A DNA stretch of 32,000 bases. Origin: Ruminococcus albus 7 = DSM 20455. GTDB taxonomy: Bacteria; Bacillota; Clostridia; Oscillospirales; Ruminococcaceae. Position 1 is the stretch's first letter. The number at the start of each line of letters is the position of its first letter. The DNA lies in assembly GCF_000179635.2 (NCBI RefSeq), contig NC_014833.1, positions 3,420,001-3,452,000 of the forward strand, in the 5' to 3' direction. The position numbers and the translations under genes were made by a program. Positions 5,597-27,975 of this stretch are shown piece by piece. The notes beneath the pieces are model-generated. The model ran no database searches. It was not told the origin of the DNA and saw nothing but the letters and a program-made list of their open reading frames with translations.

Positions 5597-5634
5597 CGGA
5601 TAACTCAACAAGTCAAGATAAGGTGGGAAAAGCA

Positions 5635-6999
5635 ATGGAAAAATTAATGCTTTCAGAAATAATAGAGGCAGTAAGAGGAAGCTACGGCTACCCTGCCAAT
5701 GTGGAGGTCAAGGATATCTCCACCGATACAAGGACCATAACCGAGGGTTCCCTGTTCATAGCACTAAAGGGCGCTAATTTTGACGGTCATGACTTTGCCG
5801 CAAAGGCAATGGAACTCGGTGCGATAGCTGTTGTAACGGAAAGACCCGTAGACGGTGCCAGATGCCTTATCGTGGATTCCACAGCACAGGCACTGCTTGA
5901 TTCAGCCTCCTACTACCGCAGCAAGTTCGATATACCGCTGGTGGGAATAACAGGCAGCGTGGGCAAGACAACTACCAAGGAAATGATATACAGCGTCCTT
6001 TCCCGCAGCTTCAAGACCCTCAAAACAGAAGCCAACCACAATAACGAAGTAGGTATGCCAAAGACCCTGCTGGAGCTTGACAATACTCATCAGGCTGCTG
6101 TAATAGAGATGGGCATGAACCACAAGGGCGAGATATCGAGAATGTCCACAAGCTGCAAGCCGACTATATGTGTCATCACCAATATAGGTGTATCTCATAT
6201 AGAGAACCTCGGTTCGCAGGAGGGTATACTAAAAGCCAAAATGGAGATACTCGACGGTGCTTCCGCCGATGCGCCGCTGATACTCTGCCGCGATGACAAA
6301 CTTCTTGCAAAAGCTGAGATATACGGCGGCAGACAGGTGTGGTATTACTCAGTCTCCAAAAAGGACTGTGATGTATACGCATCCGATATCGCCGCTGACA
6401 GCAAGGGCATAAGCTTCACTATACACTATAAGAGAGAAAAGCTCAACGCAAGGATAAACTGCCTTGGCGAGCATAATGTAAAGAACGCACTGGCTGCCTT
6501 CTGCGCAGGTGCGGCGGCAGGTATGGAGAATGAAGATATCATCGCAGGCCTTGCCGATTTCAGACCCGAGGGTATGCGCCAGAACATCATCACCGAAAAC
6601 GGCATGACCTTCGTGCTGGACTGCTACAACGCAGCTCCCGATTCCATGAAGGCAAGCCTTTCTGTACTGAGCCAGATATCCGTCCGCGGCAGACGTTTTG
6701 CTGTGCTTGGTGATATGCTGGAGCTCGGCAAGGGTACCGCGAGATATCACCGTACAGTCGGTGAATATGTCAAGGCTTCAAAGACAGATGTGCTCCTCTG
6801 CTACGGAAAGAATTCCACATACTATATAGAAGGTGCCTGCGACAAGGGCTTCGACCGCGAGAATACTAAGCATTTTGAATCTCACGAGGAACTTGTGGAG
6901 TATCTGAAGGCTAACCTCAAAGAGGGCGATGCTGTGCTGTTCAAGGGCAGCCGCGGCATGAAGCTTGAAGAAGTATACGAGGCGATAAAACAGGCGTGA
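5635..6999 (+). CDS. murF: UDP-N-acetylmuramoyl-tripeptide--D-alanyl-D-alanine ligase
   Basis: It has the P-loop GITGSVGKTTTKEM and the Mur ligase middle and C-terminal domains (LGDMLELG, FKGSRGMKLE). I prefer the ATG at 5635 because AAGGTGGG lies 7 nt upstream. The ORF-track start at 5623 is a GTG inside that SD-like sequence. Confidence 0.9.
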   Translation: MEKLMLSEIIEAVRGSYGYPANVEVKDISTDTRTITEGSLFIALKGANFDGHDFAAKAMELGAIAVVTERPVDGARCLIVDSTAQALLDSASYYRSKFDIPLVGITGSVGKTTTKEMIYSVLSRSFKTLKTEANHNNEVGMPKTLLELDNTHQAAVIEMGMNHKGEISRMSTSCKPTICVITNIGVSHIENLGSQEGILKAKMEILDGASADAPLILCRDDKLLAKAEIYGGRQVWYYSVSKKDCDVYASDIAADSKGISFTIHYKREKLNARINCLGEHNVKNALAAFCAGAAAGMENEDIIAGLADFRPEGMRQNIITENGMTFVLDCYNAAPDSMKASLSVLSQISVRGRRFAVLGDMLELGKGTARYHRTVGEYVKASKTDVLLCYGKNSTYYIEGACDKGFDRENTKHFESHEELVEYLKANLKEGDAVLFKGSRGMKLEEVYEAIKQA

Positions 7000-8012
7000 A
7001 GCTGACATTTATCATATTCGCCCTTCAGCTTGCTGTGGGCGGACTTGCAGGGCGGCTTTTCATACCCGCCTTCAGAAAAATGAAAACAGGAAAATTCGAG
7101 ATATACATCGGTGACCGTTTCAGACAGGACGGTTCAGAACCACGGGGCGGAGGGGCGCTTATGTACCTCTGCTTTGTGACTGCCTGCTTTGCAGCGGCTG
7201 CTGCGGAGGGTTTTGGTGCCGATGCCATAAGGGCAGCGGCTTTCACGGCTATATTCGCCGCAGTGCTGACTGCTGTGGGACTTATGGAAGACTATGACCG
7301 TGACGTGCGCGGCGGAATAGGTATGAAAAGCAGGTACAGGGTGACGATAAAGCTTCTGCTGTGCGGAGGATACACGGCACTCATGGGACTTTTCGGTTAC
7401 CGCTGTGATATGGTGCTTCTGCCATTCAGGTGGGGCTATCTTGATCTCGGATGGGCTTATATACCGCTGAATGCACTGCTGATGACTGTTATCATCACAG
7501 CGGCGGAGATATGCGACTGCCAGAAAGGTATACATGAAACAGGGATAGACGGACTTTGTCCGATGACGATGTTCGTAAGCTTTCTGGGACTTTTTGCGGC
7601 TTTCGGTGACGGCAGCCGCGAGATAGTAAAAGTTATATCCCTTTGTGCAGCAGGAAGCTGCGCAGGGTATCTGATATGGGGCGCTAAGCCCTCAAAGCTG
7701 TTCCTCGGTCAGTCGGGCGGACTTTTTCTGGGGAGCATGATGTGTGGAATACTGATGCTTTCAGGGCTGCACGGAGCGGTGCTGCTTGCTATGGCAGTAC
7801 CATTCATAGAGCTTGCTGCACATTTATTGCAGCGGGCAGTATTCAAAAAGAATAAAAAGCTGCTGTTCAAAGGGGCGACCCTACATGAGCATTTTCGCAA
7901 CATCGGGTGGAGCGAATACCGCATCACCGCAGTGTATGCAGCAGCGCAGGCATTGTTCTGCGCAGGGGCAGCGGCTTACAGTATATATGAAGCAAGGCTA
8001 GTGATCAATTAG
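6996..8012 (+). CDS. mraY: MraY-like polyprenyl-phosphate sugar-phosphate transferase homologue with non-canonical active-site residues
   Basis: 338 aa multi-pass membrane protein whose GTG start overlaps the murF stop (GTGA). It resembles MraY along its full length (FIPAFRKMKTGK, AKPSKLFLGQSGGLFLG, TLHEHFRNIGWSEYRIT) and sits in the mraY position. However, the DD, MGDxGS and HHH motifs read ED, LGQSGG and HEH (see findings). Confidence 0.75.
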   Translation: MKLTFIIFALQLAVGGLAGRLFIPAFRKMKTGKFEIYIGDRFRQDGSEPRGGGALMYLCFVTACFAAAAAEGFGADAIRAAAFTAIFAAVLTAVGLMEDYDRDVRGGIGMKSRYRVTIKLLLCGGYTALMGLFGYRCDMVLLPFRWGYLDLGWAYIPLNALLMTVIITAAEICDCQKGIHETGIDGLCPMTMFVSFLGLFAAFGDGSREIVKVISLCAAGSCAGYLIWGAKPSKLFLGQSGGLFLGSMMCGILMLSGLHGAVLLAMAVPFIELAAHLLQRAVFKKNKKLLFKGATLHEHFRNIGWSEYRITAVYAAAQALFCAGAAAYSIYEARLVIN

Positions 8013-8046
8013 TCTTGTAATGATAGTGAGCGGAGGTACAGCATTA

Positions 8047-9279
8047 ATGGCTGATAAGGGTATATACCGCGACCGCGACGGCGGTCTTACACTGAACAAT
8101 CACCTGCTGGTCAGACAACCTGTGGCGCAGGCGAGAAAAAAACTCAACTTCAATTTCAAGTCCATAAACAAAGGCGTTGATATGCCGTTTTTGCTGCTGA
8201 TACTTATGCTGCTGGGCTTCGGAGTGCTGATGATGTTCTCAGCCTCCTACGCATGGGGCATAAACGATATGGGCGACGGCTACTACTACGCAAAAAAACA
8301 GCTGACCTTCGCAGGCATCGGTCTTGTCGGTATGCTGTTCGTATCTATGCTGGATTATCACTTCTTCCAGAATACGGCAGTTTGTTATCTGTTTTTCGGC
8401 GTGATGTATGTCATGTGTCTGTATGCGGCATTCTTCGGATCGTCAACAGCGGATGCGAGCCGATGGATAAATCTGGGATTTGTACAGTTCCAGCCCTCCG
8501 AGCTCCTTAAAGTATCCTTCATAATAATATTCGCATATATCATGGCGGTAAATTTCCCAAAATTCAATAACTGGAAGTACTGCGTAATACCCTTCACGGT
8601 GATAATGGGTCTTTCCGTTATCGTACTGGGGCTTCAGCGTCATATGTCTGCGGTGCTGATCATAGGTATCATCGGTGTCAGCATGATGTTCGTCAGCGGT
8701 ATGCCCGCAAAAACCTTCTGGAAATTCATTGGTATACTGGCTGCCGTGGCTTTACTGGGTCTTGCCATACTTCTCATGGCAGGCAAATTCTCATATATAC
8801 AGGAGAGAATAGACGGCTGGCGCAATCCCGAGGCTGATATACAGAACAATACCTGGCAGACCTACAATTCCCTCGTTGCCATAGGCTCAGGCGGATGGTT
8901 CGGTCTTGGATTCGGTGAATCAAGGCAGAAATTCCTCTACCTCCCCGAGGCGCAGAACGACTTCGTCTTCGCTATAATATGCGAAGAACTGGGATTCGTG
9001 GGCGCACTGGTAGTTGTGGTGCTGTTCGTTATATTCGTGCTGAGAGGCTTCTATATAGCTTCAAACGCCAAGGACAGATTCGGTATGCTGGTGGCTGCGG
9101 GCATTACGATACAGATAGGTATACAGGCTTTCCTGAATATAATGGTCGCTTCAAACTCCTTCCCGAATACAGGTATATCCCTGCCGTTTTTCAGCTACGG
9201 AGGTACCGCGCTGATAATACAGCTGGCAGAAATGGGAATACTGCTCAGTATCTCACGTCAGGGTAATATCAAAAAATAA
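8047..9279 (+). CDS. ftsW: SEDS-family peptidoglycan glycosyltransferase FtsW/SpoVE
   Basis: Multi-pass membrane protein with the SEDS motifs PSELLK, PEAQNDFVFAIICEELGFVG and SLPFFSYGGTALI. I prefer the ATG at 8047 (GGAGG 10 nt upstream) over the ORF-track start at 8020. Confidence 0.9.
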   Translation: MADKGIYRDRDGGLTLNNHLLVRQPVAQARKKLNFNFKSINKGVDMPFLLLILMLLGFGVLMMFSASYAWGINDMGDGYYYAKKQLTFAGIGLVGMLFVSMLDYHFFQNTAVCYLFFGVMYVMCLYAAFFGSSTADASRWINLGFVQFQPSELLKVSFIIIFAYIMAVNFPKFNNWKYCVIPFTVIMGLSVIVLGLQRHMSAVLIIGIIGVSMMFVSGMPAKTFWKFIGILAAVALLGLAILLMAGKFSYIQERIDGWRNPEADIQNNTWQTYNSLVAIGSGGWFGLGFGESRQKFLYLPEAQNDFVFAIICEELGFVGALVVVVLFVIFVLRGFYIASNAKDRFGMLVAAGITIQIGIQAFLNIMVASNSFPNTGISLPFFSYGGTALIIQLAEMGILLSISRQGNIKK

Positions 9280-10587: not shown

Positions 10588-10670
10588 CAATACGTATATT
10601 ATGTGAAGGATGGTTTAATTTGGCAATAGACAGATCTATACAGACTAAGCGTTCAGGCTCGGGAAATACT

Positions 10671-11558
10671 ATGGATACTCTGAGAGTGCCCGACAAGCTG
10701 GATATGGACAAGCTCAGCCATAATACTTACAGAGGGTCTAAAACCAATGCCGTTGCAGATGAGATATTCTCAGGCGGAAGGTATACAAAACAGACCCGTT
10801 TCGGTGCTGCCGATGAAAAGTATGAGGGCGCAGAGCAAAGAAGAAAACGCGAAGGCACCGAAGATGCTGAAAACATCAAGTCAAGATCAGCCAGGCATAA
10901 AAAAGACCCCGACAGGCTGCATCAGGGTGTAAAAGTCGGTTCTTCCTATGTTGAAAGAAAAAAGGTGATAATATGGATCACCGTTGCACTGGTGCTTCTT
11001 GCCTGTGCACTGCTTTTCCTGCCGCCGCTGATGAACAGCACCTCGGGAGAAACAAGGGTCGATCATAACAGGAACATCTTCGAGAAAATGGGCATGACCG
11101 AGTTCAAGACCTTTGCACTGTCGAACTACTCGGTATATAACCAGGAAGCTTTTTCTTCCGAGAAAAACGAGAACTACCGTATAATAGAGATGACTGTCCA
11201 TGTGCAGAACTCTTCGCCTTTTCAGGTTACTATACCCCAGTATAAGGCGCTTCACGTACCAAAAATGTACGAGGATAAATTATGCTATGTTTCCTCAGCC
11301 AGAATGACCACCACAAGCGACGGCACACGCAAGGTCGCAGGTGATGTCATCGAAGGCTTCTCCGGCAAGGATGTCACTATCGAGATGATGATAAATGTCA
11401 AGGATATGACAGAGGAAGAACTGGATGAATGTGTTACCGGCATGGTACTCACTACCGTCGGCGCAAAGAAGAAAATAGCAAAGAAAGTAACCGTACCTTG
11501 TATACCTGCTGTCCTCTTCATATCCGATGCTGTTACCGTCCACCTGGAACCTCAGTAA
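10671..11558 (+). CDS. Hypothetical bitopic membrane protein (charged N-terminal region, one TM, ~175-aa extracytoplasmic domain)
   Basis: The long ORF 10503-11558 overlaps the murG 3' end. The first ATG after murG is at 10671, and an alternative TTG at 10620 is preceded by GAAGGATGG. The TM segment is VIIWITVALVLLACALLFLPPL. I recognise no family. Confidence 0.6.
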   Translation: MDTLRVPDKLDMDKLSHNTYRGSKTNAVADEIFSGGRYTKQTRFGAADEKYEGAEQRRKREGTEDAENIKSRSARHKKDPDRLHQGVKVGSSYVERKKVIIWITVALVLLACALLFLPPLMNSTSGETRVDHNRNIFEKMGMTEFKTFALSNYSVYNQEAFSSEKNENYRIIEMTVHVQNSSPFQVTIPQYKALHVPKMYEDKLCYVSSARMTTTSDGTRKVAGDVIEGFSGKDVTIEMMINVKDMTEEELDECVTGMVLTTVGAKKKIAKKVTVPCIPAVLFISDAVTVHLEPQ

Positions 11559-11624
11559 AAAAGTAACATAATACAGACCTTATGCATAGTATGAGCTATA
11601 CTTCATCTGAAAGGGGCATAGCTT

Positions 11625-12881
11625 ATGCAGAAGCTTATAATAAACGGCGGAAAACGGCTGTGCGGTGAGATACGGGTGCAGGGCGCAAAAAACAGTGCGC
11701 TGCCACTGCTGGCAGGGTGTCTGCTGACAGATGGCAGAACAGTGCTGAAACGCTGTCCCGAACTTACAGACGTTTTTGCCGCCTGCAGGATACTTAACGA
11801 ACTGGGCTGCAAATGCAGCTTCAGACAGGGTACTGCCACGACCGATGCCGACAGTGCCGCAGGCTTCAGGATAACCGAGGAACTCATGCGCGAGATGCGA
11901 AGTTCCATAGTGTTTCTGGGCGCTGTGCTGGGCAGGCATGGCAGATGTGAACTCAGCTACCCGGGAGGATGCGAGCTTGGTCCCCGACCGATAGATATGC
12001 ATCTTTCCGCACTCAGACAGCTGGGTGTGAAGATACATGAGGAACACGGCAGGATAAGCTGCACCTGTCCCAGAGGGCTGAAAGGCGCTTCCATAAGTCT
12101 GCCCTTCCCTTCTGTGGGAGCCACTGAAAATATCATGCTCGCCGCTGTATGTGCTGACGGCGATACCGTTATACACAATGCAGCCCGTGAACCCGAGATC
12201 ACAGATCTTGCAAACTTCCTTGTACGCTGCGGTGCTGACATAAAAGGCGCAGGCTGCAGCACTGTGCGTATCTCAGGTGTGAAAAAACTCCGCGGATGTG
12301 AGTATGATGTCATGCCCGACAGGATAGCAGCAGCGACATATATGGCTGCTGCAGCTTCAACAGGCGGTGAGCTGGGTCTTACAGATATCAGCTGCGATGA
12401 CCTTCAGGCTGTCACCTCTGTTTTCGAGGAGATGGGAGCTGCGGTGTACTCCGCAGGCAGCAGGATATTCATAAGCTGCAAGGCTCCGCTGAAAGCTGTG
12501 CGCATAATAAGAACTATGCCGTACCCGGGCTTCCCCACCGATGCCCAGGCTGTTGTAATGGCAGCGCTGACTACGGCACGCGGCAGCAGTATGATGGTGG
12601 AAAATATATTTGAAAGCAGATTCCGCCATGTGGACGAATTAGTGCGCATGGGGGCTGATATAAAAGTATCGGACAGAACGGCTGTGATACAAGGCGTCAA
12701 AAAACTATGCGGCGCAAATGTCAGAGCCCATGACCTGCGGGGCGGCGCAGCCCTTACGATCGCTGCACTGGGCGCTGAGGGTACTTCCTCAGTAGGCTGT
12801 GTCGGGTATATCGACAGAGGGTATGAGCTCATAGAAAACGTGCTGAGCTCAGTCGGCGCTGATATACGCAGAGAGTTCTGA
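11625..12881 (+). CDS. murA: UDP-N-acetylglucosamine 1-carboxyvinyltransferase
   Basis: 418 aa with GAKNSALPLLA (Lys22 region), YPGGCELGPRPIDMH (the catalytic, fosfomycin-target Cys is present) and PYPGFPTDAQA. Confidence 0.95.
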   Translation: MQKLIINGGKRLCGEIRVQGAKNSALPLLAGCLLTDGRTVLKRCPELTDVFAACRILNELGCKCSFRQGTATTDADSAAGFRITEELMREMRSSIVFLGAVLGRHGRCELSYPGGCELGPRPIDMHLSALRQLGVKIHEEHGRISCTCPRGLKGASISLPFPSVGATENIMLAAVCADGDTVIHNAAREPEITDLANFLVRCGADIKGAGCSTVRISGVKKLRGCEYDVMPDRIAAATYMAAAASTGGELGLTDISCDDLQAVTSVFEEMGAAVYSAGSRIFISCKAPLKAVRIIRTMPYPGFPTDAQAVVMAALTTARGSSMMVENIFESRFRHVDELVRMGADIKVSDRTAVIQGVKKLCGANVRAHDLRGGAALTIAALGAEGTSSVGCVGYIDRGYELIENVLSSVGADIRREF

Positions 12882-17358: not shown

Positions 17359-17505
17359 TTTGATATACATATATCTGACATTGAAACTTTGTGCAGTTTC
17401 ATCCCATAAATATCCCCATTATCATACGTATATAAAGTGTACAACAAAGGAAAGGTGACTTCAAGCCGCCCTGAATATAAAGACATATATAACGGAGGTA
17501 ATATT

Positions 17506-18882
17506 ATGAATAACTCATATATCAAAAAAGCATTGTCTGCCGCCCTTGCAGCACTTGTGCTATCTATGACATCCTGCGGAAATATCACCGAAAAGAAAGA
17601 TACACCGCCAACGAAAAAGCCCGATACTGATTCATCTTCAGCCACACCTTCCGATGAACCCGTAGTGACCTCCGACGAGTATTCCGATACACCCGCTCCC
17701 CTCTCTGTTGCGCCGCTGTCATCCGTCACCCTTGATGAAAATTATATCCTGCCCGATGCTGACTTCTATGCTTCCTACCGCGACTACGCCGCAGAGCTTT
17801 TCAAAGCAGTATGTACCGATGATATCAAATCGGGCAAAAACGCTATGATATCCCCCGAGAGCGTTATGATGGCACTTGGTATGACAGCCAACGGCGCTAA
17901 GGGCGATACCCTTTCACAGATGGAAACAGCCCTCGGCGGCAAGGGTATCGACGCTATAAACAACGCCATGCAGTACCGCATGAACAGATTCATGGCTAAC
18001 GAAGATGTAAGCTTCAATGTCGCAAATTCCGTGTGGGTGCGCGATGATGCCAACCGTATACAGATGTCACAGGACTTCTGCGATAAGGTAAAGTCGGTGT
18101 ACAACGCAGACAGCTTCCTTGCCCCCTTTGACAGCACAACCCTGGATGTTATAAACTCATGGGTAAACAAGAACACCAATAATATGATCCCCAATATACT
18201 CGATTATATCCCCGATGAAGCTGTTGCTTACCTTATTAATGCCATCGCTTTTGAGGGCGCATGGGCTGATAACTACGAGGTCTACCAGATATCCGAGGAC
18301 GATAAATTCACTAACTACAAAGGTGAAGAAGAAAAAGCAGTTATGCTGTATTCTCAGGAGGGCAGCTATTTCTCAGATGAGAATACCACAGGCTTCATGA
18401 AAGACTACGAAGGTCATGACTACGCTTTCATGGCTATGCTCCCATCCGAAGACACTGATATCGCAGACTATGTCGCAGGTATTGACGGAGACAAGCTTAG
18501 CAAGCTGTGGCGTTCAGCAAGCGGCGATGTTAACGTGTGCATACCTGAATTTACATTTGATTACAACAGTGAACTCAGCGATGAACTGAAGTCTATGGGC
18601 ATGGAGCTCCCCTTCACCGAATCAGCAGATTTTTCAGGCATGGCAGAAACCTCATCGGGTGCCCTCTATATCAACCGCGTCATCCACAAGACCCATATCG
18701 AGCTCGACCGCAACGGCACAAAGGCAGCTGCAGCTACCGCAGTAGTGATGACCGACGAATGCGCCATGGAGGAGGAAGAACCCAAGATAGTATACCTGAA
18801 CAGACCCTTTGTATACGCTATAATAGATAAAGAAAGCGGTACTCCCATTTTCATAGGTGCTGTCAACACCTTAAATGGCTGA
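17506..18882 (+). CDS. Serpin-family serine protease inhibitor, predicted lipoprotein
   Basis: The ATG at 17506 has GGAGG upstream. The signal peptide ends in a lipobox-like LSMTSC, followed by a T/S/P/D-rich linker. The serpin core includes NSWV..NT...I, INAIAFEGAW and a hinge/RCL of GTKAAAATAVVM followed by NRPFVYAI. Confidence 0.85.
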   Translation: MNNSYIKKALSAALAALVLSMTSCGNITEKKDTPPTKKPDTDSSSATPSDEPVVTSDEYSDTPAPLSVAPLSSVTLDENYILPDADFYASYRDYAAELFKAVCTDDIKSGKNAMISPESVMMALGMTANGAKGDTLSQMETALGGKGIDAINNAMQYRMNRFMANEDVSFNVANSVWVRDDANRIQMSQDFCDKVKSVYNADSFLAPFDSTTLDVINSWVNKNTNNMIPNILDYIPDEAVAYLINAIAFEGAWADNYEVYQISEDDKFTNYKGEEEKAVMLYSQEGSYFSDENTTGFMKDYEGHDYAFMAMLPSEDTDIADYVAGIDGDKLSKLWRSASGDVNVCIPEFTFDYNSELSDELKSMGMELPFTESADFSGMAETSSGALYINRVIHKTHIELDRNGTKAAAATAVVMTDECAMEEEEPKIVYLNRPFVYAIIDKESGTPIFIGAVNTLNG

Positions 18883-23416: not shown

Positions 23417-24448
23417 ATGGTTATCCCCTTAACACACCACAAGTAAGATCACTGCACCAAAGCAGCCAAAAGCCTTAAATACGCACTGTTTCCCAGCTTA
23501 CGACGGTTGAATTTGTAACAGTATTCGGCAGCATATAACGCTGTGTGGATCTTTTCGTTTCCGTGGTAAGTTCCCATGATCATTGCTTTGAAGTTTGATA
23601 TAACTTTATGCATCCAGTTCAGCTGACCGCTTGTCGGATCATATGTTTCAAAAACATGGAAGTATTTCTGTGCCAGCGGTTTCTTGTAACTTCGAGCATT
23701 ATCACTCTCGATCTTCGAGCCTGCGCGGATATTATCCCTGGCAAATCTACCCACAGTTATACCCTTTAAATTCGGCACATCGCTCATTTTAACGTACTCG
23801 GGATTTCCTGCTGCGTTCTTCGATAAAGCTACGATCATCTTGACTTTTTCAGTACCTCTGCCGCGCTTTTTACCGTGAGTCGGAGCACCGAGATACGTGT
23901 CATCAAGTTCAACGATCCCGTCGAGCAAATAGCGTTCTTCACGGCATTTCATAGCTTTTCTGATGCGGTGAAGGATGTACCATGCAGTCTTGTAGGTCAC
24001 TCCCAAATTCCTCATAAGTGTAACAGCAGAAACGCTGCATTTGTTGCTCATAATGAGGAATGCGGTGATTATCCACAGTCTGAGCGGAATATGTGTTCTG
24101 TGCATAAAAGTTCCGTTTGTGTCGGATATATCTGCTTTACAGAACTTGCAGCGCAGCAGATGGCGTGACCTTATCCTGCGGTACTCAGAGCCACCGCAAA
24201 ACGGGCAGGCAAAGCCCTTTTCGAAGCGGATATCAAGCAGAAAATCCTTGCAAAAGCTTTCATCTGCGAACTTTGAGTATATCCCATCAAGTGTGATCTC
24301 AGGTTTCGGAAATCTTTTTGACATAGCGACAGCTCCTTTCGGTTTCTGTCACTATTATACTATATTTTCCGGTTTTTGAGGTCTGTTTATTTGGACAGTT
24401 TTGTAAATTATCTGTGGTGTGTTAAAGGGATAACCATGTAGAATAATA
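23417..24448 (-). mobile_element. IS1595-family insertion sequence (about 1.03 kb), apparently intact
   Basis: The terminal inverted repeats are ATGGTTATCCCCTTAACACACCACA (23417-23441) and the reverse complement of 24423-24447 (ATGGTTATCCCTTTAACACACCACA), matching at 24 of 25 positions. It carries a single transposase ORF and is flanked by the direct repeat TAGAATAAT. Confidence 0.85.
23449..24324 (-). CDS. IS1595-family (ISXO2-like) DDE transposase with N-terminal zinc ribbon
   Basis: 291 aa with the Zn ribbon CPFCGG...CKFC and an HTH-like segment (VSAVTLMRNLGVTYKTAWYILHRIRKAM). It has DDE-region motifs ELDDTY and IESDNARSY, and the C-terminal YAAEYCYKFNRR. Confidence 0.88.
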   Translation of the reverse strand: MSKRFPKPEITLDGIYSKFADESFCKDFLLDIRFEKGFACPFCGGSEYRRIRSRHLLRCKFCKADISDTNGTFMHRTHIPLRLWIITAFLIMSNKCSVSAVTLMRNLGVTYKTAWYILHRIRKAMKCREERYLLDGIVELDDTYLGAPTHGKKRGRGTEKVKMIVALSKNAAGNPEYVKMSDVPNLKGITVGRFARDNIRAGSKIESDNARSYKKPLAQKYFHVFETYDPTSGQLNWMHKVISNFKAMIMGTYHGNEKIHTALYAAEYCYKFNRRKLGNSAYLRLLAALVQ

Positions 24449-24549: not shown

Positions 24550-27500
24550 TTGTCCGATTTCGTTCATCTTCACCTGCACAGCGAATATTCCCTGCTTGAC
24601 GGTGCCTGCCGCATCGACAGGCTGGCAGCCCGTCTTAAAGAAGTGGGGCAGACCGCCTGTGCAGTTACCGACCACGGCAATATGTTCGCGGCGATAGAAT
24701 TCTATAACACCATGCGTGCCGCAGGCATAAAGCCCATACTCGGCTGTGAGGTGTATGTTGCCCGCGGCAGCCGCGAAGACAAGGATCACCGTGAGGGCAA
24801 ACCATATCATCTGATACTCCTCTGTGAAAACGAAACAGGCTACCGCAATCTTATAAAAATGGTGTCCCTTGGGTATACCGAGGGATTTTACAGCCGTCCG
24901 CGTATAGACCTTGAACTGCTCAGAAAATACCACGACGGTCTGATATGCCTTTCAGGCTGTGTAGCAGGCGAGCTTTCGACGAAGATAGCAAACGGCAATT
25001 ACAAAGGCGCCGAAGAAACAGCTTTGCTTTACCGCGATATATTCGGTGCGGATAATTACTTCATCGAGATACAGAAGCACCGCGACCCTGTTGAACAAAG
25101 GGTGATGCCATCGCTTATAAGACTTTCGCAGGATACAGGCATACCTCTTTGTCTTACCAATGACTGCCATTATCTCCGCCGCGAGGATTCTCAGGCACAG
25201 CAGGTACTCATGTGCATATCCACAGCCACCACCACCGATGACCCTGCCATATCCTTTGCAAGTGATGAGTTCTATGTAAAGTCTGCCGAGGAAATGGCTG
25301 AGTTATATCCTGCCATTCCCGAAGCTATGCTGAATACTGTCCGCATCGCAGACAGGTGTGATGTGGAGATAAAATTCGGCAGCACAGTACTCCCCTATTT
25401 CGGTATAGACGGTGTCAGCGACAATGCGGCTTACCTCCGCAATATGTGCCGTGAGGGACTTTACAGGCGATACGATGAACCCTCGGAAGAAGCTCTTGAA
25501 CGTATGGAATACGAGCTTTCGGTAATAAACGGCATGGGCTATACCGACTACTACCTGATAGTCTGGGATTTCATAAACTATGCCAAAAGCCACGATATCC
25601 CCGTGGGACCCGGACGAGGTTCGGGCGCGGGCAGCCTTTGCGCTTACTGCATCGGCATCACCGATATAGACCCGCTGAGATACGACCTGCTGTTTGAACG
25701 TTTTCTAAATCCCGAGAGAGTTACCATGCCCGATTTTGATATCGACTTCTGCGTTGAGGGCAGACAGAGGGTAATAGATTACGTGGTGGAGAAATACGGC
25801 GCAGACCATGTGGCACAGATAGCGACCTTCGGTACTTTGGGCGCAAAACAAGCGCTCCGTGATGCTGCAAGGGCTATGGGCGAACCCTATGCCACAGGCG
25901 ACAGGCTTGCCAAGGCTGCACCGCGTTCCATGCTGCTAAGCGATTCCGTTGAAAAAATACCCGAGCTCAGGGATATGTACAACAGCGATATGAAGCTTAG
26001 AAAAATAATCGACACCGCCATACTCATCGAGGGTATGCCCAGGAACGTTTCCACCCATGCGGCAGGTGTCGTTATAACAAAAGAGCCCGTTGACTTCTAC
26101 GTGCCGCTGTATGCCCGTGACGGCGCTGTATCCACACAGTACACCATGACGGTGCTTGAACGGCTGGGACTTCTCAAAATAGACTTTCTGGGGCTCAGCA
26201 ACCTTACGATAATCAAGCACTGCTGTGACGAGATAAAAAAGACTCATCCCGATTTTGATATAGAGCATATCCCCCTTGATGACAAAGCGGTGTACGATAT
26301 GCTGTCCCGAGGTGAAACAGAGGGCGTTTTCCAGTTTGAATCGGGTGGAATGACAGCTACTATAATGAAACTTCGTCCCTCGGGTATAGAGGACCTTATC
26401 GCGGTGCTTTCGCTTTACCGTCCCGGTCCTATGGATTCGATACCGAACTATATCCGCTGCCGCCATGACCCAAAACTCGTGCGCTACAAGCACCCCATGC
26501 TTAAACCCATACTTGAAGTCACCTACGGCTGTATAGTATATCAGGAACAGGTCATGCAGATATTCCGTTCACTGGCAGGATACTCCTTCGCACGCGCCGA
26601 CCTGGTAAGACGTGCCATGTCCAAGAAAAAGGCAGACGTGCTTGAAAACGAGCGCAAAGCCTTCGTATGGGGCGATGAAGAAGTATGCGGCGCGGTAGCG
26701 AACGGTGTTCCCGAAAAGACAGCGAATGATATATTCGATGAAATGACAAGCTTTGCCAGCTATGCCTTCAACAAATCCCACGCGACGGCTTACGCTACGG
26801 TGGCATACAGGACTGCTTATCTTAAATGCCACTTTTTCAAAGAGTACTTTTCGTCACTGATGACGGATGCCATAAACGAGAGTACAGAGAAGCTGTACGG
26901 GTATATCTCGGCGGCAAGAAAACGGGGCGTTGCTGTACTTCCGCCAGATATCAACAAAAGTATTGGCGGTTTCTCGGGCGAAGGCGATTCCATACGCTTC
27001 GGACTACTTGGCATAAAGGGTCTCGGAAGCAATTCCATAGCCGCGATAATAAGGGAGAGAACACTCGGAGGAGATTTTCTCAACCTGCAGGATTTCTGCC
27101 GACGTATGCAGGGCAGGGATATACACACAAAGGCTGTCGAAGCACTTATAAAAGCAGGGGCTATGGATCCGCTGCCCCTGAACAGGCATGAAAAGCTTAT
27201 AAACTGTGGTATAATCATGGGTGACCTCAGCCGCGCGGCAAGCGACAGGCTGGAGGGGCAGCTGGACTTTTTCGGCAGCGGCGGCGCCTCCGGTGACGGA
27301 CTTGACAAGCCCATGATAGACGCTGAGGAGCTGACCTCGGAGGAACTGCTGCTTTATGAGCACGAGGCACTTGGTATGTACCTTTCGGCACATCCCATAG
27401 ATACCTGCGAACCTTTTGCAAGGGCGGCAGGATTCACCTCAGTAAGGACTATACTTGAAGCAGGACTGAAAGGCGAAGGCAGGACAGCGGACATCCTTGT

Positions 27501-27975
27501 AATGGTTACCAGGAAACGTTCAATAGCCACAAAGAAGGGCGATATGATGTGCTTTGCCGCCTGTGAGGACAAAACAGGAGAAATGGAAGTCATCGTATTC
27601 CCGAAGGTATATATAGCGGCAGGTGAACTTGTAAAGGAGAATGCCGTACTGCACGTACGCGGAAAGGTATCTGTCAAGGAGGACGAGCCCCCGAAAATAC
27701 TGGCTGACCTTGTGGAAACGGGCGAAAGGTTCGTGATGCAGGCGCTGGGTATGGGGATCTGTCTGCGGATAGATTCAAGGGACAAAGCGCGGCTTGAAGC
27801 GGTATCGGCGGCGGCACACAAATATTCCGCCGAAAACGGCACTGCGCTGACGGTATACTTCTCAGACCTGAAGCGCCGCACCGCCATAAAGGGTGCCCAC
27901 AGGATACGCATAAACGACAGGATAATGAATGAACTTTCCGGCATAGTCGGAGAGGGAAACACTGCGTTCGGATAA
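24550..27975 (+). CDS. dnaE: DNA polymerase III alpha subunit DnaE
   Basis: 1141 aa with a TTG start 7 nt after AAAGGAGG. It has the PHP domain FVHLHLHSEYSLLDGA, the catalytic PDFDIDF, LLKIDFLGL, the fingers/thumb regions and a C-terminal OB-fold region. Confidence 0.97.
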   Translation: MSDFVHLHLHSEYSLLDGACRIDRLAARLKEVGQTACAVTDHGNMFAAIEFYNTMRAAGIKPILGCEVYVARGSREDKDHREGKPYHLILLCENETGYRNLIKMVSLGYTEGFYSRPRIDLELLRKYHDGLICLSGCVAGELSTKIANGNYKGAEETALLYRDIFGADNYFIEIQKHRDPVEQRVMPSLIRLSQDTGIPLCLTNDCHYLRREDSQAQQVLMCISTATTTDDPAISFASDEFYVKSAEEMAELYPAIPEAMLNTVRIADRCDVEIKFGSTVLPYFGIDGVSDNAAYLRNMCREGLYRRYDEPSEEALERMEYELSVINGMGYTDYYLIVWDFINYAKSHDIPVGPGRGSGAGSLCAYCIGITDIDPLRYDLLFERFLNPERVTMPDFDIDFCVEGRQRVIDYVVEKYGADHVAQIATFGTLGAKQALRDAARAMGEPYATGDRLAKAAPRSMLLSDSVEKIPELRDMYNSDMKLRKIIDTAILIEGMPRNVSTHAAGVVITKEPVDFYVPLYARDGAVSTQYTMTVLERLGLLKIDFLGLSNLTIIKHCCDEIKKTHPDFDIEHIPLDDKAVYDMLSRGETEGVFQFESGGMTATIMKLRPSGIEDLIAVLSLYRPGPMDSIPNYIRCRHDPKLVRYKHPMLKPILEVTYGCIVYQEQVMQIFRSLAGYSFARADLVRRAMSKKKADVLENERKAFVWGDEEVCGAVANGVPEKTANDIFDEMTSFASYAFNKSHATAYATVAYRTAYLKCHFFKEYFSSLMTDAINESTEKLYGYISAARKRGVAVLPPDINKSIGGFSGEGDSIRFGLLGIKGLGSNSIAAIIRERTLGGDFLNLQDFCRRMQGRDIHTKAVEALIKAGAMDPLPLNRHEKLINCGIIMGDLSRAASDRLEGQLDFFGSGGASGDGLDKPMIDAEELTSEELLLYEHEALGMYLSAHPIDTCEPFARAAGFTSVRTILEAGLKGEGRTADILVMVTRKRSIATKKGDMMCFAACEDKTGEMEVIVFPKVYIAAGELVKENAVLHVRGKVSVKEDEPPKILADLVETGERFVMQALGMGICLRIDSRDKARLEAVSAAAHKYSAENGTALTVYFSDLKRRTAIKGAHRIRINDRIMNELSGIVGEGNTAFG

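Follow-up and report, generated by a model that had tools for sequence, protein, structure and literature searches.

MraY transfers phospho-MurNAc-pentapeptide to C55-P, which yields lipid I, and is essential in peptidoglycan-walled bacteria. Antibiotic research has long targeted it, and the catalytic aspartates of the enzyme are regarded as invariant. In the MraY of A. aeolicus, D117, D118 and D265 are critical for activity, D265 being the conserved and essential Mg2+ ligand; the uracil pocket is made up of K70, G194, L195, D196 and F262, an adjacent pocket of T75, N190, D193 and G264, and H324 and H325 belong to loop E (PMC6606608). One study placed one Ruminococcus sp., two Ruminococcaceae sp. 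and two Treponema sp. sequences outside the MraY clade, basal in most trees, and noted that a four-sequence Ruminococcaceae/Treponema group 'could be divergent MraY sequences', with no motif, context, distribution or function given for these bacterial outliers (PMC11915815, doi 10.1101/2022.11.30.518518). We analysed a stretch of 32,000 nt from Ruminococcus albus 7 = DSM 20455 (NC_014833.1, positions 3,420,001-3,452,000; the window, to which all coordinates below refer unless another locus is named), in which the open reading frame (ORF) in the mraY position of the division and cell-wall (dcw) operon (6996..8012; + strand, as are all operon features below) encodes a 338-aa membrane protein with a predicted 10-helix MraY fold. 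We call this ORF gene X, and its relatives the X or 'DGSEP' family. The X family is an uncharacterised variant of MraY and of the polyprenyl-phosphate N-acetylhexosamine-1-phosphate transferases (PNPTs), which is clade-wide, has its own motifs, and has a defined origin and genomic position. Judged from its sequence, X is unlikely to make lipid I by the usual route.

X matched the Pfam family PF00953 (Glycos_transf_4) over residues 85-255 with 57 bits (E 3e-15; cut-off 27). The NCBIfam equivalog model for mraY, TIGR00445, matched residues 49-320 with 78.9 bits, below its cut-off of 192 bits, and the least-diverged family member, at 121.3 bits, also fell short of that value. The closest relative with a solved structure was the C. 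bolteae MraY (5jnq), which phmmer aligned with residues 5-324 of X (E 2.6e-18). An AlphaFold model of X, built on 32 family sequences, had a predicted local distance difference test score (pLDDT) of 88.6 and a predicted template modelling score (pTM) of 0.90. Foldseek matched this model to at least 10 MraY structures with a template modelling (TM) score of about 0.8; query-normalised scores were 0.76-0.83 for most MraY chains and 0.68-0.83 for all MraY chains listed, with human DPAGT1 behind them at 0.66-0.73. The model thus indicates that X has the PNPT fold of the MraY/GPT type, with ten transmembrane helices. A first-pass annotation of the window had suggested a resemblance to MraY along the whole length of X, and the 5jnq alignment and the TM scores agree with this. 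PF10555 (MraY_sig1), which is present in many canonical matches, was found in no family member in precomputed domain lists. Naming by automated pipelines is inconsistent: R. albus orthologues of X are called 'glycosyltransferase family 4 protein' at NCBI, where 'hypothetical protein' is also used, and one UniRef entry is named 'phospho-N-acetylmuramoyl-pentapeptide-transferase'.

Residues were aligned by phmmer to 5jnq and in three independent MAFFT alignments, and all four agree on the substitutions. The DD motif (A. aeolicus D117-D118) is replaced by E98-D99 (7287..7292, codons GAAGAC), with E98 in place of D117 and D99 in place of D118. In loop D, PSKLFLGQSG (7689..7718), the Asp of MGDTGS, which is the Mg2+-coordinating D265, faces Q239 in all alignments (CAG at 7710-7712). 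Loop E, KKLLFKGATLHEH (7854..7892), contains H297-E298-H299 in place of H324-H325-H326, the codons for HEH being CATGAGCAT at 7884-7892. The loop A motif, KTGKFEIYIGDRFRQDGSEPRGGG (7083..7154), stands where MraY has its signature GP..H..K.GTPTMGG, and no other stretch of the family is as conserved. Within it GTPTMGG (signature 1) has become SEPRGGG, as part of DGSEPRGGG in the window protein and DGSEPxxGG in the family, and the counterpart of K70 is Q44 or D45, the alignments being ambiguous by one residue. The window protein therefore lacks three hallmarks of MraY, namely the aspartate triad (E98, D99 and Q239 in X), the HHH motif (H-E-H) and signature 1. Of the uridine-pocket sequence, loop C, EICDCQKGIHETGIDGLC (7506..7559), retains GxDGL, with A. 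aeolicus G194-L195-D196 corresponding to G183-I184-D185, and F262 corresponds to F236. G264, of the adjacent pocket, corresponds to G238. The equivalent of D193 is either D174 or absent, depending on the alignment.

The first-pass annotation had proposed by eye the ED for DD, the Gln for the Mg2+-binding Asp, HEH and SEPRGGG. Its positions were exact, phmmer and the three MAFFT alignments reproduced each change, and no alignment placed Asp/Asp/Asp and His-His-His at the catalytic positions. Its description of loop C stood only in part. The segment from the periplasmic PF hairpin to GxDGL is indeed longer, by 8 residues, than in the nearest canonical MraYs, and NxxNxTD is no longer recognisable; however, the loss of the first Asp and the placement of the extra residues depend on the alignment, and GxDGL is kept.

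X was found in 51 species loci of GTDB, in every one of them between murF and ftsW, by a scan of one genome per species with the most conserved peptide of the family, GDR[FWS]x[QKT]DGSE, which the scan itself had chosen. Carriers include R. albus KH2T6 and AR67, Ruminococcus sp. Marseille-P6503, FC2018 and YE71, Hominimerdicola aceti, and many rumen and gut Ruminococcus metagenome-assembled genomes (MAGs). R. albus type strain 7 and R. flavefaciens were not among the 51 matches, which may be due to the choice of GTDB representatives, a variant motif missed by a single pattern, or real absence. A word-indexed protein search returned 41 relatives, the near-full-length ones among them with identities from 100% down to 38%, followed by a gap to canonical MraYs at about 25%. 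In an exhaustive profile search of 1.84 billion representatives, about 25 family representatives scored from 440 to about 150 bits; full-length canonical MraYs started at 148 bits, and the motifs switched abruptly at that point. X is thus a conserved, clade-wide family with invariant motifs of its own, and not an oddity of a single genome.

Residue frequencies were counted over 50 family sequences. The position of the Mg2+-binding Asp was E in 22, Q in 16, S in 8 and R in 4, and never D. Position 98, equivalent to D117, was E in 34, D in 11, Q in three and R in two, and position 99 was D in all 50. The outer histidines of loop E were kept in 49 and 48 sequences, with 12 different amino acids found between them. 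In loop A the family has gained G39, D40, R41, F42, D45, G46, S47, E48 and P49, of which D40, R41, D45 and E48 were each present in 50 of 50 sequences. D185 was retained in 40, a Phe or Tyr at position 236 in 42, and a Cys/His pattern in loop C, [H/C]-D-C ... DGL-C, also in 42; the equivalents of F262 and G264 are kept in X. Mean conservation across the family was 0.71 in the cytoplasmic loops, 0.54 in the transmembrane segments and 0.52 in the periplasmic segments, with loop A as the extreme (11 of 20 positions at least 90% identical). The five cytoplasmic loops are therefore the most conserved part of the protein, and it is this face that forms the active site in MraY.

Eight species loci (L053-L060, among them that of Ruminococcus sp. 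YE71, L054 9992-11005) form a deep subclade that departs from the family pattern and carries NRFGTDEE[TS]CIGGL and PSK.R.GSSGG. These proteins have lost the equivalents of D193 and D196 and the loop D aromatic residue, mostly have D-D at the DD motif, and have an intact loop A. Of these two Asp equivalents, L050 and L051 lack only that of D196, D185 being changed to G. We also noted a second group of degenerate MraY-like proteins of about 330 aa (P0092, P0103, P0113 and P0110), with motifs such as ...AKTTGG, DDW, LTEGT, IGNAG and PVDQQ. They have no 8-residue extension, and they have KTG..[PG]DR and D.KG..G.K in common with X. P0092, from a Clostridiales MAG, scored 77 bits on TIGR00445; a metagenome scan aimed at this group returned only further X loci.

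The operon runs in the order mraW, ftsL, class B penicillin-binding protein gene, murE, murF, X, ftsW, murG, an unnamed gene, murA, ftsQ and ftsZ. X thus lies where mraY is expected, which is directly 3' of murF (or murE) and 5' of murD or ftsW, and the order is constant across X-bearing loci. The gene 5' of X is murF (UDP-MurNAc-tripeptide--D-Ala-D-Ala ligase; 5623..6999), and an ftsW/SEDS gene (8020..9279) begins 7 nt past the X stop codon. The GTG start of X (6996-6998) shares bases with the TGA of murF (6997-6999), forming a GTGA overlap at 6996..6999 that indicates translational coupling; an overlap of 4 nt is also present in loci L001 and L012, and one of a single base in L010. These coordinates and the Pfam matches of the flanking genes bear out the first-pass annotation, which had placed a GTG start overlapping the murF stop in the mraY slot of a dcw cluster. 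The order is interrupted in X-bearing locus L004 by an additional ORF of 277 aa without a family match (11019-11852) between X and ftsW, and in L012 by a small ORF with a weak match to DUF3784 between ftsW and murG. murD is missing from the dcw cluster in X-bearing loci and in relatives with a canonical mraY (the window, L007, L009 and L064-L066), so that mraY or X adjoins ftsW. Because the canonical relatives also have no murD there, its loss from the cluster is older than X.

In all ten related lineages whose context was readable (Monoglobus, Subdoligranulum and eight Oscillospiraceae or 'Ruminococcus sp.' lineages), the slot from murF to ftsW is filled by a canonical mraY. Gene order further out could be read in most of them and agrees as well, and murD is missing wherever the mraY-ftsW junction could be read. 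MurE identity to the window was at most 59% in these lineages and at least 70% within the X clade. The least-diverged X, from Marseille-P6503, scored 151-175 bits with MraYs of the sister clades, 133 with that of Subdoligranulum, 119 with that of Monoglobus and 97 with that of C. bolteae. This gradient tracks organismal relatedness, and X therefore derives from the local mraY lineage. By this comparison of sequences, X is the orthologue of the local mraY or a lineage-specific duplicate that has replaced mraY at this position. An ancient paralogue unrelated to the local mraY, or an import, was rejected since the similarity gradient follows species relationships. Two PLSDB records that served as canonical references, OY725839.1 and NZ_OY725739.1 (L006 and L007), are labelled as plasmids of Subdoligranulum variabile and Monoglobus pectinilyticus; they carry complete dcw clusters and look like chromosome fragments misfiled as plasmids.

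In 48 of the 51 species loci the reading frame of X is unbroken, at 333-351 codons, and in the remaining three it is truncated by a contig end. The ratio of nonsynonymous to synonymous substitution rates (dN/dS) between the window and R. albus AD2013 was 0.067, and among five close genomes it was 0.05-0.16, mostly 0.05-0.11; the values for murF, ftsW and murG were 0.018, 0.031 and 0.027. The low dN/dS indicates that X is under purifying selection, and with the intact frames it led us to reject a pseudogene, in line with the first-pass annotation, which had argued against simple decay. The comparison of orthologues that it had proposed gave the same picture, with the Mg2+-binding Asp lost in every member and dN/dS in the purifying range. 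Its impression of a compositional contrast, with blocks of 55-63% G+C in X and 30-40% in murF and ftsW, did not survive. Whole-gene G+C was 51.9% for X, 49.8% for murF and 47.5% for ftsW, and the G+C content at third codon positions (GC3) was 0.534 in X and 0.51-0.58 in its neighbours; in blocks of 60 nt the same range is covered in all three genes. The small excess in X fits its content of Ala and Gly (26% compared to 19%). Horizontal origin or a compositional anomaly was therefore rejected, GC3 being equal to that of the neighbours. X evolves much faster than its operon neighbours, unlike canonical MraY: between loci in which MurE is 75-80% and FtsZ 84-89% identical, X is 39-49% identical, whereas between two canonical sister lineages MraY (63%) and MurE (60%) are equally conserved.

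How might such a protein function? The reading that we tentatively prefer, and consider possible rather than probable, is that X does not perform the standard Mg2+-dependent translocase reaction and serves the membrane step of precursor synthesis as a non-catalytic accessory, lipid I being made by an enzyme encoded elsewhere. X descends from the clade's own mraY and retains the MraY membrane scaffold; on this reading it would no longer be a conventional phospho-MurNAc-pentapeptide translocase. Its remodelled cytoplasmic face would still bind something, either a uridine nucleotide or precursor, or a cytoplasmic partner such as MurF or MurG; a ligand of the uridine type is possible because GxDGL and the loop D Phe/Tyr, and with them most of the uridine pocket, survive. 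X would be produced in a fixed ratio with MurF. As MraY forms dimers, X might also pair with the real enzyme. Lipid I would come from an enzyme whose gene lies elsewhere in the genome, either a canonical MraY or a further PNPT. We favour loss of the translocase reaction because catalytic positions interchange within the family and because evolution is persistently fast, unlike that of a sole essential enzyme. The variability of the Mg2+ position (E/Q/S/R) fits a residue that is no longer catalytic, and the proposal leans further on the variable D117 equivalent (E/D/Q/R), the free middle histidine and the one subclade without equivalents of D193 and D196.

Several observations weigh against this reading. 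Loop A is hyper-conserved and contains three invariant acidic residues, a pattern that is as much that of a catalytic site as that of a docking surface, and D99, K234, H297 and H299 are invariant as well (the two histidines at the counts of 49/50 and 48/50 given above). No other glycosyltransferase family 4 or PNPT protein was found among the 20 long ORFs of the 32-kb window with Pfam, and tblastn with canonical MraYs detected no second homologue in the GTDB loci within 10 kb on either side of X, as far as the contigs reach. There was no Ruminococcus record among the PLSDB matches listed for tblastn with the C. bolteae and sister-clade MraYs, and none of the ten canonical MraYs whose context was read lies outside a dcw cluster. 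Other searches were in keeping with these: tblastn of X against PLSDB returned no X-bearing record; the matches listed in a protein search with the canonical relative P0077 (at least 120) were all from sister lineages; of the five top canonical matches to the least-diverged X (P0422), the four that were looked up all belong to dcw clusters of other lineages; and the cluster names of 30 representatives included no canonical MraY of R. albus. A literature search returned nothing relevant on R. albus mraY or on inactive MraY paralogues. All second-copy checks together cover less than 1% of any X-clade genome and are weak evidence. Since no second homologue was found where we looked, we only infer a true mraY elsewhere.

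The chief rival explanation, which we regard as rather unlikely, is that X is an enzyme of altered chemistry, a transferase or hydrolase with the PNPT fold that would use D40, D45 and E48 together with D99, K234, H297 and H299 on another nucleotide-linked substrate or another lipid, with a canonical MraY making lipid I from a gene elsewhere. It is supported by the strongest conservation of the family, which falls on a new motif of the catalytic face (at least 90% identity at 11 of the 20 positions of loop A, and D40, R41, D45 and E48 in every sequence). So it is by the retention in most members of the D118, D193 and D196 equivalents and of the uridine-pocket residues, and the [H/C]DC...DGLC pattern of 42 of the 50 sequences could form a different metal site. 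However, L053-L060 swap D174 for N, D185 for G and F/Y236 for R, yet keep loop A, and L050 and L051 also change D185 to G, so that no single complete catalytic constellation holds across the family. The evolutionary rate is also high for an enzyme active site, and apart from the ordinary dcw genes X has no linked gene that would point to a substrate.

It is also conceivable, though we think it improbable, that X is the sole MraY and makes lipid I with a rewired active site independent of D265, a change that might stem from escape from nucleoside antibiotics or protein inhibitors targeting the MraY site. By position X is an exact orthologue of mraY: in all 51 species loci it is coupled to murF and adjoins ftsW, among peptidoglycan genes that are otherwise ordinary and well conserved. 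The changed residues T75, N190, D265 and H325 (and K70, depending on the alignment) are largely ones that contact nucleoside inhibitors (PMC6606608). Against a sole MraY, the Mg2+-binding Asp is universal and essential in the superfamily (PMC6606608), and X has interchangeable Q, E, S or R there. Every canonical MraY that could be placed comes from outside the clade, by the MurE identities given above, and no other homologue was seen wherever checks were made (the window, 10 kb on either side, and plasmids); with the coverage stated, that these checks gave no second copy is weak evidence for a sole enzyme. Moreover, an essential sole enzyme is not expected to be about 3-fold less constrained than murF, ftsW and murG, and its catalytic positions keep changing between subclades. 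For the broader proposition that a canonical MraY is missing altogether from the R. albus clade, with lipid I made either by X without the Mg2+-binding Asp, possibly through a redesign around the GDRF..DGSEP loop for escape from inhibitors, or by a non-MraY enzyme, we see little likelihood. If true, this would be the first exception to the conserved catalytic architecture of MraY in peptidoglycan-making bacteria. Finally, the chance that X is a decaying pseudogene, or that its substitutions are artefacts of alignment by eye, is negligible, given 333-351 intact codons in 48 loci, low dN/dS, native GC3, a fold predicted with high confidence, and substitutions reproduced by phmmer and MAFFT.

The product of the unnamed gene (10620..11558), which lies between murG and murA, matches no Pfam or NCBIfam family; it has a disordered cytoplasmic N-terminus, a single transmembrane helix and an outer domain some 170 aa long. 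Among 45 X-bearing loci that extend to this interval, tblastn detected homologues in 43 (for example L001 13508-14437, L004 14470-15402 and L012 13908-14837); there were none in the canonical-mraY loci spanning it, in which murA, or ftsQ in one locus, directly follows murG. The gene thus co-occurs with X, being present with it and missing from canonical-mraY loci, and it may be linked to X. That it supplies the missing catalysis was rejected, the product being a single-pass membrane protein without a family match. Elsewhere in the window, a serpin gene (17437-18882, + strand, 481 aa; PF00079, E 2e-78) lies just 3' of a fumarase subunit gene and is also found at the end of the AD2013 locus L012. 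An IS1595-family transposase gene (23449-24324, - strand; DDE_Tnp_IS1595 and zinc ribbon) adjoins a 1141-aa ORF at 24550-27975.

The mraY slot of these fibre degraders, which are abundant in rumen and gut and form a coherent clade, therefore holds a fast-evolving protein under selection that has no Mg2+ ligand at the canonical position. If a canonical MraY is encoded elsewhere, X would be a natural pseudoenzyme or neo-enzyme derived from MraY inside a division and cell-wall operon, and a handle on the organisation or regulation of the membrane step of precursor synthesis. If there is no other MraY, the accepted mechanism would not cover all MraYs, and inhibitors that contact T75, N190, D265 or H325 would be expected to miss organisms of the X clade. 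There is also a practical aspect: TIGR00445 is a phylogenetic marker model of GTDB, and X falls below its cut-off and is named inconsistently by automated pipelines.

Compared with known systems, X is in some respects reminiscent of catalytically dead regulatory paralogues such as the trypanosome S-adenosylmethionine decarboxylase (AdoMetDC) prozyme (PMC5201418), in that it is conserved, has substituted catalytic residues and is under purifying selection. This is an analogy only; X occupies the ancestral locus and is not the displaced copy, and its active counterpart is hypothetical. The archaeal pseudomurein MraY-like family (NF053644) differs from X, which scored only 39.9 bits on this model against a cut-off of 450. 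The PNPT paralogues WecA, TagO and WbpL, called 'MraY family glycosyltransferase' by the Prokaryotic Genome Annotation Pipeline (PGAP), have PF00953 in common with X, but they keep DD, NxxNxxDGxDGL and the Mg2+-binding Asp, do not lie in the mraY slot and are more distant; X scored 23-67 bits with the two WecA-like proteins tested and about 100-175 bits with MraYs of sister Oscillospiraceae. The 'unannotated' sequences of the earlier phylogeny (PMC11915815) are probably a previous sighting of the X family or its relatives. From MraY itself (TIGR00445; 4J72, 5JNQ and 8G01) X differs in its score of 78.9 bits against 192, in the change of D265 to Q, E, S or R, in a D117 equivalent that is mostly E, in HxH for HHH, in DGSEPxxGG for GTPTMGG, in the missing NxxNxTD, in 8 additional residues in loop C, and in its faster evolution. 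It has in common with MraY the ten-helix fold, with a TM score of about 0.8, and the slot between murF and ftsW; the equivalents of D118, GxDGL, F262/G264, H324 and H326 and the periplasmic PF hairpin are kept, and its nearest relatives in sequence are the MraYs of sister Oscillospiraceae.

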